Origin: a virus
Lineage: Duplodnaviria; Heunggongvirae; Uroviricota; Caudoviricetes
IMG/VR virus record: IMGVR_UViG_3300034082_002445
Coordinates: 1 to 10,139 of that record
DNA length: 10,139 nt
Reading direction: 5' to 3' (one strand)
The position numbers and the translations under genes are program-made. A model generated the notes under the pieces. It did not search any database and had not been told where the DNA came from. It was given only the letters and a program-made list of their open reading frames with translations. This document shows, piece after piece, positions 2,038-9,223 of the stretch. Numbering within the stretch: the first letter of the stretch is position 1; every line of letters starts with the position of its first letter.

Positions 2038-2066
2038 TGAAACATAGAGATCTTTGGTTGTATAAT
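2038..2066 (+). promoter_or_regulatory. Putative promoter TGAAAC-N17-TATAAT upstream of tRNA-Arg
   Basis: GAAAC 2039-2043 and TATAAT 2061-2066; the same spacing recurs at 2871 and 6487. Confidence 0.6.
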
Positions 2067-6486: not shown

Positions 6487-6514
6487 GAAACTTTCAAGTC
6501 GAAGGATATATAAA
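6487..6514 (+). promoter_or_regulatory. Putative promoter GAAAC-N17-TATAAA upstream of the 6542-8185 unit
   Basis: GAAAC 6487-6491 and TATAAA 6509-6514; same spacing as the 2039 and 2871 sites. Confidence 0.5.
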
Positions 6515-6541: not shown

Positions 6542-7099
6542 ATGAAAAAAATCGAAGATTTAAAATCACAACTAGCTGAATTAGAGGTAAAAGCTGAAGC
6601 AGCTCAAAAAGAATCATCTGAAACTTTGTATGATTTGGTATTGGAAAGTCCAAAAACCATCAAACAAATTCAAGATAGAATTAACAAAGATTACGAATGG
6701 GAGTCTCGTACTGCTGCCGTAGTTGTACATTTACATGATCGTTTGTCAGAAGAACGTAAACGTATTAGTGTAGCAGAAGCTAGTGAAGATGGCACAATTA
6801 CAATCCAAATGAAAGGAATTGAATTGAATGGTCTTTACCAAGCAATGTTAAACATGAAAGGCACAGGAGTTGAAAATGCTCGTACTTTCGCAAGATTATT
6901 AACAAGTATTGGTAAACAAGTTACAGAGGCAATGCAATCTATGGCTGTTGTTAACCAAAAAGTGATGGAAATTCACAAAGAAATTTCAGAAGTTGAGAAC
7001 GAGATCGCAAGAATCGAAGATGCTGAACTAGCTGAAAGATTAGAAGCTCAAGATCGCGCTAACAATCCAGTTGAGATTGAAGCAGATCAAAAAGCTTAA
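6542..7099 (+). CDS. Hypothetical helical/coiled-coil protein, 185 aa
   Basis: Heptad-like E/K/L/A-rich segments at both ends (IEDLKSQLAELEVKAEA; IHKEISEVENEIARIE); no catalytic motif seen. Confidence 0.8.
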   Translation: MKKIEDLKSQLAELEVKAEAAQKESSETLYDLVLESPKTIKQIQDRINKDYEWESRTAAVVVHLHDRLSEERKRISVAEASEDGTITIQMKGIELNGLYQAMLNMKGTGVENARTFARLLTSIGKQVTEAMQSMAVVNQKVMEIHKEISEVENEIARIEDAELAERLEAQDRANNPVEIEADQKA

Positions 7100-7115: not shown

Positions 7116-7652
7116 ATGAAGAATACAAGCAAGAGCAAGAATAGATTAGAACTTTTGGACATGGTGACTGAAGCAGTTACTAGTGACCGTATATTTGAAA
7201 CAATTAATTATCAGACTCAGTCTGAAGATAAAATCAAGCAATTCATGTATCCTAACATTTTATCTTCTTTTAAGAAGTTTTTAATGGAACAAAGAGGATA
7301 TGACGCAAATGTAGCTGATATGAAATCCAAACAAAGTTTACTTTGGGAAGGTAACAAGAAAACTACAGTCAAAAACATGATGTTTATGGGCACTCAAAAC
7401 CGACCAGACATGGTTGTTGAATTGGGTGACGTAAGAATTGCTATTGAAATTAAACGTGGAGAAACTGGTTCTGATTTAAGATCTGGCTTTGGTCAATCAA
7501 TGGTTTATGCAACTGTTTATGACTTTGTATTGTATCTCTTCATCGATACCAGTAAAGACAAGAAAATCCTGAACTCAAGTACAGGTGGAAATGAAGTTGA
7601 TTTCGTAGAAACAATTTGGAAGAATTGGAACATAAGATTCGCAATAGTTTAA
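7116..7652 (+). CDS. PD-(D/E)xK superfamily (restriction-endonuclease-like) nuclease
   Basis: RPD (D 7407) ... IAIEIK (E 7446, K 7452) ... GFGQSMVYA (Q-x3-Y helix seen in Mrr-like/type IV nucleases). Confidence 0.78.
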   Translation: MKNTSKSKNRLELLDMVTEAVTSDRIFETINYQTQSEDKIKQFMYPNILSSFKKFLMEQRGYDANVADMKSKQSLLWEGNKKTTVKNMMFMGTQNRPDMVVELGDVRIAIEIKRGETGSDLRSGFGQSMVYATVYDFVLYLFIDTSKDKKILNSSTGGNEVDFVETIWKNWNIRFAIV

Positions 7653-8185
7653 TGAGCAAAATTTTTGTAACAGGCAACTTACAGTTTGGCCGACCAAGTA
7701 TTATCAAGAAGATGAAAAGACCCTTTGAGTCTCTTGAAGAGATGCACGAAGAGTTGATTAAAAAATGGAATGCGGTTGTCGCCATAAACGATACAGTGTA
7801 CCATTGTGGCAACTTTGCATGGGATCCTGATACTGCAGAAACTATGTTAAACAAACTTAATGGTAACATTTATTTAATTCCAGGCGAAGATGACAATGCC
7901 ATTTTAGATCTTGTTAAAAACAAAAGCGTGCCTAAGCATGCAGTTGTTATTGACACAATCAATGAAATCAGTGAATTAGAATCAGTATTGTCTTATTGGC
8001 CCATGACTGTGTGGCCTAAACAAAGTAGACGTTATTACAATGTGCATGCTTACCCAAGCAAAAAGCACTTATCAAATCACAAATCTAAAAGCCTAAATGT
8101 GGCATGTGATTTCTGGGGCTACAAGCCCATCGAATTAGAAACAGTTAAAGAGTTGGTAAATCTCAACGAAGAATTTACTGATTGA
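7652..8185 (+). CDS. Calcineurin-like metallophosphoesterase homologue with degenerate active site (start revised to ATG 7652)
   Basis: Family scaffold is recognisable: IFVTG..FG..IIK..RPF..EEM..LI..WN.VV..DTVYH.G.F..LNG..LI.G..D..P..W..NV..D.W.YKP. Metal-ligand motifs are substituted. The start overlaps the upstream stop (TAATG). Confidence 0.85.
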   Translation: MSKIFVTGNLQFGRPSIIKKMKRPFESLEEMHEELIKKWNAVVAINDTVYHCGNFAWDPDTAETMLNKLNGNIYLIPGEDDNAILDLVKNKSVPKHAVVIDTINEISELESVLSYWPMTVWPKQSRRYYNVHAYPSKKHLSNHKSKSLNVACDFWGYKPIELETVKELVNLNEEFTD

Positions 8186-8201
8186 TTACCAACTCTTTAA
8201 C

Positions 8202-8236
8202 ATTTATTTTCAAAAAAACTGAAAATAAATTTTTTT
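8202..8236 (+). terminator. AT-rich terminator-like hairpin
   Basis: Perfect 11-bp stem ATTTATTTTCA(8202-8212)/TGAAAATAAAT(8220-8230) followed by a T-run; weak because it is almost all A-U. Confidence 0.45.
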
Positions 8237-8269
8237 ATGTCAAGTTTTTTGTGTATATTTACACTATAA
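8230..8269 (+). promoter_or_regulatory. Repeated promoter module B
   Basis: 36/40 identical to 5133-5172; lies 12 nt upstream of ATG 8282. Confidence 0.7.
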
Positions 8270-8281
8270 CTTAAAAACAAT

Positions 8282-8521
8282 ATGAAACAATCGGAAAAGT
8301 ATTTGAATCTTATCAACGAAGATTATCAATTGGATCCAACCCATCCAGAGTATTATGGTTTTTTAAACACAAATCCTTCTGACTCTGGTGAATTTACAAC
8401 GATAGCTACATATATTGCTCAGAATCCTGAAAAATATAAAGATGTCTTGAATAAGCTTAATTTAGAGATTGGGTTCAATTCATGTAAAGAAGAAATGGTC
8501 TTTGTTAGAAAATGTTCGTAA
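8282..8521 (+). CDS. Hypothetical protein, 79 aa
   Basis: ORF directly downstream of promoter B; no motif recognised. Confidence 0.75.
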   Translation: MKQSEKYLNLINEDYQLDPTHPEYYGFLNTNPSDSGEFTTIATYIAQNPEKYKDVLNKLNLEIGFNSCKEEMVFVRKCS

Positions 8522-8560
8522 CTTTTTAAAATAAAAGTGTCCGGTTTAAAAAGAATGTAT

Positions 8561-8576
8561 TATATTAGCAGTATGA
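8561..8576 (+). promoter_or_regulatory. Variant of promoter A/B core (TATATTAGCAGTATGA) upstream of the sigma gene
   Basis: Aligns with TATATTTACAGTATAA at 5157 (13/16); followed by an A-rich leader to ATG 8603. Confidence 0.45.
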
Positions 8577-8602
8577 ATAACCAAAATAAAAACAGCAAAC
8601 GT

Positions 8603-9223
8603 ATGAAAGTAAAAAACAATAACCTAAGCTATCGTGAATTAGCAGAAAATTTTGTAGCAACTAAATCTGAATCAGATTATGTGCAATTGTATAAAAAAGT
8701 TAAACCAGGTTTAAGATCTTATATCTTTAAAACTGTTAAGGACTCTGCTGCAGCTGAAGATATTTTGACTAATACATTGACTAAGTTGTGGACCAAGATT
8801 GATCAGTATGATCCTCAGTATCAAATTACAACATGGTTATATCGCATTGCATTCAACGAGTGTCTTGGTTGGATTCGTGAACGTAATCGTAAGTATTCTT
8901 TGGATTCTATGCAAGAATTTGGTTTAGACATTGAAGAATCAACTGGTAAACTTACAAGTAACATTTCTGATTTGATGGAAGATTACGAAATGAAATCTGA
9001 AGCTGATTATTTAGCTGAAGATGCAGAACTTGATAGAGTTTATGAATCTACTTTGATGGCAATGGATAAGTTGAAACCAATATATAAGAATATACTTGTT
9101 GATCGAATCATCAATGAAATGAAATACGAAGATTTGGCTGATAAGTATAAATTACCTTTGCAAACTATCAAAAATAGAATTCGTCGAGGTCGCTTATTGG
9201 TGATCGAGATGGTCGAAGCATAA
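8603..9223 (+). CDS. ECF-type (sigma-70 group 4) RNA polymerase sigma factor
   Basis: Region 2 AEDILTNTLTKLW...YDPQYQITTWLYRIAFN and region 4 HTH LKPIYKNILVDRIINEMKYEDLADKYKLPLQTIKNRIRRGR. ATG 8603 is preferred; ATG 8573 is an alternative start. Confidence 0.92.
   Translation: MKVKNNNLSYRELAENFVATKSESDYVQLYKKVKPGLRSYIFKTVKDSAAAEDILTNTLTKLWTKIDQYDPQYQITTWLYRIAFNECLGWIRERNRKYSLDSMQEFGLDIEESTGKLTSNISDLMEDYEMKSEADYLAEDAELDRVYESTLMAMDKLKPIYKNILVDRIINEMKYEDLADKYKLPLQTIKNRIRRGRLLVIEMVEA

Follow-up and report, generated by a model that had tools for sequence, protein, structure and literature searches.

A catalytically dead metallophosphoesterase encoded next to an ECF-type sigma factor in large uncultured phages

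Phages without an RNA polymerase of their own capture the host enzyme by means of the sigma factors they encode, and the control and timing of these factors are known for only a few model phages. We describe here a phage gene whose product is related to metallophosphoesterases, has lost every metal ligand of that family, and is linked almost without exception to a downstream gene for a sigma factor of the extracytoplasmic function (ECF) type. The gene lies in a 10,139-nucleotide stretch of DNA, hereafter the window, which forms the first 10,139 bases of the 75,410-base IMG/VR record IMGVR_UViG_3300034082_002445. Nearly all genes of the sequence are carried by the plus strand. The record is 34% complete according to CheckV, so that the full phage genome is probably larger than 200 kb. 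Both the loss of catalysis and the retention of the gene by selection are well supported, and we refer to its product, a selected pseudoenzyme, as the dead phosphoesterase. As to its role, we see an even chance that it works with the phage sigma factor, as a non-catalytic partner or a regulator.

The relationship to metallophosphoesterases is genuine and not due to chance. The PHROG 547 'phosphoesterase' profile matches the protein over its full length (residues 1-174, E 1.2e-23), and a profile of its clade, compared with the PDB, matched 1xm7, a COG4186-type phosphoesterase of Aquifex aeolicus, at E 3.2e-10. An AlphaFold2 model based on a 117-sequence alignment reached a mean predicted local distance difference test score (pLDDT) of 95 and a predicted template modelling score of 0.90, and points to an intact phosphoesterase scaffold: Foldseek ranked 1xm7 first (E 4.9e-8, template modelling score (TM) 0.70), followed by MJ0936, Mre11, LpxH, GpdQ and Vps29, and the closest structures in BFVD were phage COG4186 phosphoesterases (TM 0.74-0.82). 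Judged by its sequence, the protein is best placed as a descendant of the COG4186/PHROG 547 phage phosphoesterases. Kinship to the Mre11/gp47 nuclease, whose gene lies near gene 55 in T4, was ruled out, the structural matches to Mre11 (TM 0.32-0.43) being far below that to 1xm7. An exhaustive HMMER search collected 9032 relatives, and most of those among the matches listed are canonical. The protein itself is missed by Pfam (E up to 0.1), NCBIfam and PADLOC. In particular, it does not reach the Pfam models Metallophos (PF00149) and Metallophos_2; the PF00149 cut-off of 21.5 bits is passed by a canonical paralogue encoded by the same phage (30.3 bits) and by the canonical representative P0040 (38.4 bits), and Metallophos matched none of the five other members of the degenerate clade among the six clade proteins scanned.

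The ATG of the gene overlaps the TAA of the upstream open reading frame (ORF) (TAATG, 7650-7654). The start Met is identical in all homologues; the start is therefore this ATG at 7652, and not the TTG at 7616.

The state of the active site was assessed on an alignment of the best 150 representatives of the 9032 relatives, five phage proteins and the phage's own paralogue, in which 103 aligned sequences with the motifs DxHxxH, GD, GNHD, H and GHxH served as the canonical reference. Against this reference, the dead phosphoesterase retains none of the eight ligand and catalytic positions scored. Its motifs read N-L-Q-F-G-R / GN / GEDD / Y / H-A-Y-P-S (Table 1): the seven metal ligands and the catalytic His are all replaced, and only the non-ligand residues Asp81 and His132 are left over within them.

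Some of the replacements have themselves become conserved. In a 43-sequence set, from which all residue percentages for the clade are taken, position 14 is Arg in 91% of members, where 96% of canonical sequences have His, and the former bridging Asp is Asn54 in 93%, where canonical relatives have Asp. A new motif follows the former motif II, with Asp58 in 91%, Trp57 in 79% and Pro59 in 77% of the clade; this WDP is absent from the canonical relatives. Conservation is lost at the former His positions 11, 80, 134 and 136 and at the Asn of GNHD: across the clade, Phe, Trp and Tyr predominate at positions 11, 80 and 134, and 136 shows no preferred residue. A set of non-catalytic family residues (R23, M31, W39-N40, D47, L69-x-G71, D81, W121 and P159) is common to the degenerate clade and the canonical set. 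The old site thus looks remodelled and still functional as a surface rather than tuned to a metal, and the variable, mostly aromatic former His positions argue for a filled or remodelled site and against one precisely tuned polar pocket. An initial annotation, made from the letters of the window, had described the substitutions as isosteric and had suggested selection for a metal-free binding pocket. The isosteric character holds within the protein's own subclade (Asn9, Gln11, Glu79, Tyr115) and fails across the whole clade, where the former His positions vary; of the pocket, a part is indeed newly fixed (R14, N54, W57-D58-P59).

The dead proteins form essentially one clade. In a maximum-likelihood tree built after removal of the 13 motif columns (LG+G4, quick search, with support values to be read cautiously), one branch unites 49 of the 53 degenerate representatives, with a Shimodaira-Hasegawa-like approximate likelihood ratio (SH-aLRT) support of 96. 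The four others are scattered singly among canonical sequences, which suggests separate losses. Within the clade, ligands were lost stepwise: the Asp of motif I, the His of motif IV and in some cases GH persist in basal members and in the uncultured phage LR756500 (462 kb), and the loss is complete in the subclade of the window protein.

Purifying selection on the gene is strong. Ratios of nonsynonymous to synonymous substitution (dN/dS, by Nei-Gojobori) are 0.11 (0.036/0.340) against a 92%-identical homologue and 0.08 against a 99%-identical one (loci L185 and L014); across 19 pairs taken from other loci, none overlapping, they range from 0.03 to 0.21 (median about 0.10); the neighbouring sigma factor and guanylate kinase genes give 0.12 and 0.16 for comparison. 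Decay into a pseudogene is excluded by these values of about 0.1 together with intact ORFs in well over 100 loci. Much of the initial annotation is upheld by these analyses. Its claim that essentially every metal ligand is substituted agrees with the count above, and each of its codon coordinates gives the residue claimed (N9 at 7676, Q11 at 7682, N54 at 7811, G78-E-D-D81 at 7883-7894, Y115-W-P, and H132-A-Y-P-S136 at 8045-8059). The frame and scaffold, which it took to be intact, are so by the stop-free ORF, the pLDDT of the predicted phosphoesterase fold and the rank of 1xm7. Its preference for selection over decay is confirmed by the dN/dS values, and the question it posed of whether the substitutions define a conserved clade is answered by the tree.

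The second main observation is the neighbourhood of this clade. The conserved downstream gene (Table 1) encodes a sigma factor that scores 66.7 bits against the NCBIfam sigma70-ECF model (cut-off 42.9) and whose best solved relatives, in a profile search of the PDB, are SigW, SigH and SigE. Among 87 further loci with a dead phosphoesterase, 85 carry a co-directional sigma gene downstream, usually at a distance of 30-120 nucleotides; in one of the two exceptions there is hardly any sequence downstream. In a dereplicated set of 35 loci, 34 have the sigma gene at position +1, +2 or +3, and the genes upstream and farther downstream vary. The pairing persists at 31-36% identity, where the upstream genes are those for ATP-grasp, PhoH or ThyA proteins, and in two loci (L094 and L096) the phosphoesterase stop and the sigma start overlap by 4 nucleotides. 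A reverse search seeded with the sigma factor found the dead phosphoesterase upstream in 77 of 80 loci. As a control, a sigma factor of this kind was found within 3 kb in none of 80 IMG/VR loci seeded with canonical phosphoesterases; likewise, no sigma gene adjoins the canonical sister P0083, the phage's canonical paralogue, or the canonical homologues in the uncultured huge phages LR756504 and LR756508 and in a Vibrio phage.

The hidden Markov model used to look for the sigma factor in this control does reach remote ECF-like sigma factors, namely those of Lak phages, other huge phages and crAss-like phages (E 1e-17 to 1e-24). The pairing is not a general trait of sigma factors in Bacteroidota phages: no phosphoesterase-like neighbour accompanies the related sigma factors of Lak phages, of two further uncultured huge phages (LR745206 and LR756502) and of a crAss-like phage.

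We propose, on the strength of this gene association, that the dead phosphoesterase is a partner of the sigma factor; the functional link rests on genomic association only. The protein would be made together with the phage sigma factor and would act with it to redirect the host RNA polymerase, either as a sigma-binding regulator (anti-sigma-like, or a licensing factor) or as a co-factor, and the remodelled face of the former active site would serve as the binding surface. In favour of this reading, the gene of an ECF sigma factor as a rule shares its transcript with that of a cognate regulator. A more specific version, which we consider rather improbable, would make the protein a new kind of sigma regulator: its metal-free pocket would sense a phosphorylated small molecule, for instance a nucleotide reporting on replication or on the state of the host, and the protein would hold or license the ECF-type sigma factor through this same remodelled pocket, so that the ligand times the switch to sigma-dependent transcription from the motif GAAAC-N17-TATAA.

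This promoter-like motif occurs three times in the window (2039-2065, 2871-2897 and 6487-6513), each time between called ORFs, against 0.07 copies expected. The 75-kb record as a whole contains 20, exclusively on the plus strand and up to position 60562. In at least eight related loci it stands at the corresponding place before the coiled-coil gene, the first of the local unit, and no copy lies between the dead phosphoesterase and sigma genes. The transcription unit of the dead phosphoesterase likely starts at the third copy in the window, and the layout fits co-transcription of this gene and the sigma gene from a phage-type promoter. The motif does not appear to fit the Bacteroidota sigma-A promoter consensus, and it is a candidate for the promoter class of the phage's ECF-type sigma factor.

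Table 1. Features of the window at and around the dead phosphoesterase gene (aa, amino acids; nt, nucleotides)
Positions	Strand	Feature	Remarks
6487..6513	+	Promoter-like motif GAAAC-N17-TATAA	Begins 55 nt ahead of the coiled-coil ATG
6542..7099	+	Gene for a coiled-coil protein, the first of the local unit	Conserved only in the near lineage
7116..7652	+	PD-(D/E)xK-like ORF, 178 aa	Stop overlaps start of dead phosphoesterase; weak Pfam AHJR-like match
7652..8185	+	Degenerate COG4186/PHROG 547-type metallophosphoesterase homologue, catalytically dead	177 aa; translation without stop
7676..7693	+	Former motif I (DxHxxH), N9-L-Q11-F-G-R14	From alignment; Arg14 for His in 91% of clade
7808..7828	+	Former motif II (GD), G53-N54, then clade-specific F-A-W57-D58-P59	From alignment
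7883..7894	+	Former motif III (GNHD), G78-E-D-D81	Only Gly and last Asp retained
7994..8002	+	Former motif IV His, Y115-W-P	From alignment
8045..8059	+	Former motif V (HGHxH), H132-A-Y-P-S136	From alignment
8282..8521	+	ORF of 79 aa between the partner genes, variable	Nothing or unrelated small ORFs there in other lineages
8537..9223	+	Phage ECF-type sigma factor, regions 2 and 4, conserved downstream partner gene	Pfam Sigma70_r2 2e-11, Sigma70_r4_2 5.7e-7

Several points weigh against a partnership of the two proteins or lend it no support. Known anti-sigma factors have other folds and are usually encoded downstream of the sigma gene, and a conserved order of phage genes can simply be inherited, with no direct functional link behind it. 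Unrelated small ORFs separate the pair in the window and in several lineages, so that tight translational coupling is not required. A mirror-tree test on distance matrices found no co-variation of the pair beyond shared phylogeny (r 0.79, partial r 0.16, below other neighbour pairs), and no fusion of phosphoesterase and sigma factor was seen among longer proteins, which is weak evidence. Finally, three near-identical sigma loci (L112, L113 and L114, from IMG/VR 3300031705_000001 and relatives) have no phosphoesterase-like gene within 2.5 kb upstream. These three loci are natural cases of loss or relocation and possible material for comparison.

That the protein acts alone, as a sponge or sensor whose metal-free pocket binds a phosphorylated ligand or nucleotide, such as an immune signal or an alarmone, without cleaving it, is unlikely, though not negligibly so. 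Its pocket holds Arg14, Arg23, Asn40 and Asn54, of which Arg14 keeps a positive charge at the family's conserved His and Arg23 and Asn40 are retained from the active family; the pocket face is also the most clade-specifically conserved part of the protein, in a gene under strong purifying selection. One defined ligand is, however, a poor fit to the wide variation of four former ligand positions within the clade, and among the matches listed the structure searches gave phosphoesterases only and no known sponge fold. The initial annotation had pointed to signals of the CBASS, Thoeris or Pycsar type; this idea finds no echo in the gene context, which shows no conserved defence or counter-defence genes and no PADLOC match, the sole conserved neighbour being the ECF-type sigma factor. 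It had also offered a scaffold as an alternative; the link to the sigma factor was absent from it.

It is also improbable, to much the same degree as the ligand-timed regulator above, that the sigma link is a matter of inherited gene order only, the gene merely sitting at the edge of a conserved block of early or middle genes and its product having a non-catalytic role apart from transcription, for example in binding nucleic-acid ends or another phage protein. The lack of special co-variation and the free insertion of small ORFs between the pair are both in line with this, and loci of the near lineage conserve guanylate kinase, coiled-coil and nuclease-like genes upstream as well. The adjacency of the pair is nevertheless the only one to survive to 31-36% identity while all else changes; it includes stop/start overlaps in several deep lineages and is recovered by the reverse search in nearly every locus. 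Least probable, and very doubtful in our view, is an enzyme with changed chemistry, using a hard metal (Mg, Ca or Fe(III)) on oxygen donors or metal-independent catalysis through Arg14: oxygen donors are present in the window's subclade (Asn9, Gln11, Asn54, Glu79, Asp81, Tyr115 and Tyr134), where N9, Q11 and E79 are invariant, and Y115 almost invariant, down to about 43% identity, and purple acid phosphatases have a Tyr ligand in the same fold, but sister subclades with the same fold, R14/N54/WDP and sigma neighbour have F, W, Y, L, M, K, G or P at these positions, the catalytic His of GNHD is gone throughout the clade, and the bridging Asp is Asn in 93%.

The genes around the pair are less constant. 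The block of guanylate kinase, coiled-coil and PD-(D/E)xK-like genes upstream is confined to the near lineage (25 of 35 dereplicated loci). A fixed unit of coiled-coil, nuclease and dead phosphoesterase genes, as claimed initially, therefore holds for that lineage and not for deeper relatives, which have ThyA, PhoH, ATP-grasp or methyltransferase genes upstream. The 178-residue ORF, which is translationally coupled to the dead phosphoesterase, has no family match beyond the weak Pfam one given in Table 1. Its AlphaFold2 model (pLDDT 86.5) gave weak Foldseek matches, nearly all of them to PD-(D/E)xK nucleases (restriction enzymes, Cas4, Card1, XPF), and it has an invariant Pro97 and Glu111, which lie inside the PDM and IAIEIK segments of the window protein. 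The gap between the partner genes (8186-8536) and its counterparts elsewhere form an insertion hot spot, filled according to lineage by unrelated small ORFs of 57-245 amino acids; the dN/dS of the 79-residue ORF found there in the window (0.137/0.365, or 0.37) is above that of its neighbours. In four loci (L010, L094, L096 and L098) the pair opens a longer block made up of the dead phosphoesterase, the sigma factor, one or two small ORFs and a PDDEXK_1 nuclease. This block of deep lineages does not occur in the window's lineage, and the flanking ORFs of the window show no homology to the deep-lineage nuclease. In a 77%-identical relative (L186:1669-2480), four small minus-strand ORFs, one of them Cro/YdaS-like, lie directly 3' of the dead phosphoesterase, at the place expected for the sigma unit.

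The canonical paralogue of the same phage, at record positions 36273-36914, has all five motifs. An AAA_33 P-loop kinase-like gene directly follows it. Genes for two RNA ligases, a DNA ligase and a PHROG 850 'RNA-binding protein' are close by, and its surroundings look like an RNA-repair neighbourhood. Beyond the window, record positions 32230-37338 and 45208-48360 make up a possible RNA-repair island. The record also encodes, at about 48.8 kb, a third phosphoesterase, which is of another type.

A Bacteroidota host is plausible, although the indications are weak. Sigma factors related to that of the window occur in Prevotella Lak phages and crAss-like phages, the second-best NCBIfam match of the window's sigma factor, below the cut-off of that model, is Sig70_bacteroi1, and one related contig was binned in a metagenome-assembled genome of a Flavobacteriaceae. 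Elsewhere in the window, a tRNA-Arg(TCT) (2073-2147) and a tRNA-Ser(TGA) (2773-2861) flank a DUF6445 gene (2173-2766), the tRNA-Arg being 98% identical over 61 nucleotides to that of Synechococcus phage syn9. A 5'-truncated ORF at 1-1557, which consists largely of collagen-like Gly-X-Y repeats followed by a globular C-terminal domain, is probably a tail-fibre gene; another collagen-like gene for a tail fibre is found at record positions 65053-67911.

If the two proteins do work together, they would define a new class of sigma-factor partner and offer a clear case, in viruses of prokaryotes, of an enzyme fold co-opted as a scaffold for regulation. The lineage concerned comprises a large set of uncultured large phages, probably infecting Bacteroidota. 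For annotation, the consequence is that genes of the dead clade should not be labelled as active phosphoesterases. In the literature, we found no description of a phage sigma factor linked to a dead metallophosphoesterase, and nothing relevant on the function of COG4186.

Among known systems, the closest are the COG4186/AQ1575-type enzymes (PHROG 547, 1xm7 and many phage 'phosphoesterase' genes), which share ancestry, size and fold with the dead protein (TM 0.70-0.82) as well as the non-catalytic signature residues. In contrast to them, the dead protein lacks the metal ligands and the catalytic His and has the new R14, N54 and WDP, and the partner of its clade is a constant sigma gene, whereas canonical members are found in replication, repair or RNA-repair contexts. 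Loss of the metal site in this fold is not without parallel. Vps29 of the retromer and the B subunits of the eukaryotic DNA polymerases alpha, delta and epsilon are phosphoesterase-fold pseudoenzymes with a degenerate metal site that act as protein-binding scaffolds. Vps29 and a chain of DNA polymerase zeta are among the weaker Foldseek matches of our model, at a distant TM of 0.34; these proteins belong to another branch of the family, are eukaryotic, have a trafficking coat or a DNA polymerase as partners, and were inactivated independently. With the phage proteins Tad1, Tad2, Acb1, Acb2 and Apyc1, no homology or shared fold was seen, the listed structures being phosphoesterases and DNA-repair nucleases drawn from general libraries, none dedicated to anti-defence.

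The genomic arrangement recalls operons of ECF sigma and anti-sigma factors, which likewise form a co-directional unit with a small conserved partner, sometimes with overlapping codons; here, a phage promoter-like motif stands ahead of the unit. As with the gene for an anti-sigma factor, that of the dead phosphoesterase is co-directional with the ECF sigma gene, adjacent to it and conserved with it (85/87 and 77/80 loci). Unlike the anti-sigma factors of ECF systems, the partner has a phosphoesterase fold, is encoded upstream of the sigma gene, and appears cytoplasmic, with no membrane segment evident; its binding to the sigma factor is only proposed. No helical anti-sigma domain occurred among the listed PDB matches of the model, nearly all of which have the phosphoesterase fold. 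To the accessory proteins of T4 (the sigma factor gp55 with its co-activator gp33, and AsiA) there is no relation in sequence or fold, and the sigma factor is here of the two-domain ECF type and not of the minimal gp55 type. What would be shared with T4 is the strategy, in which a sigma factor and small accessory proteins together redirect the host polymerase, a strategy of phages without a polymerase of their own that has been reviewed for jumbo phages (PMC7824862).

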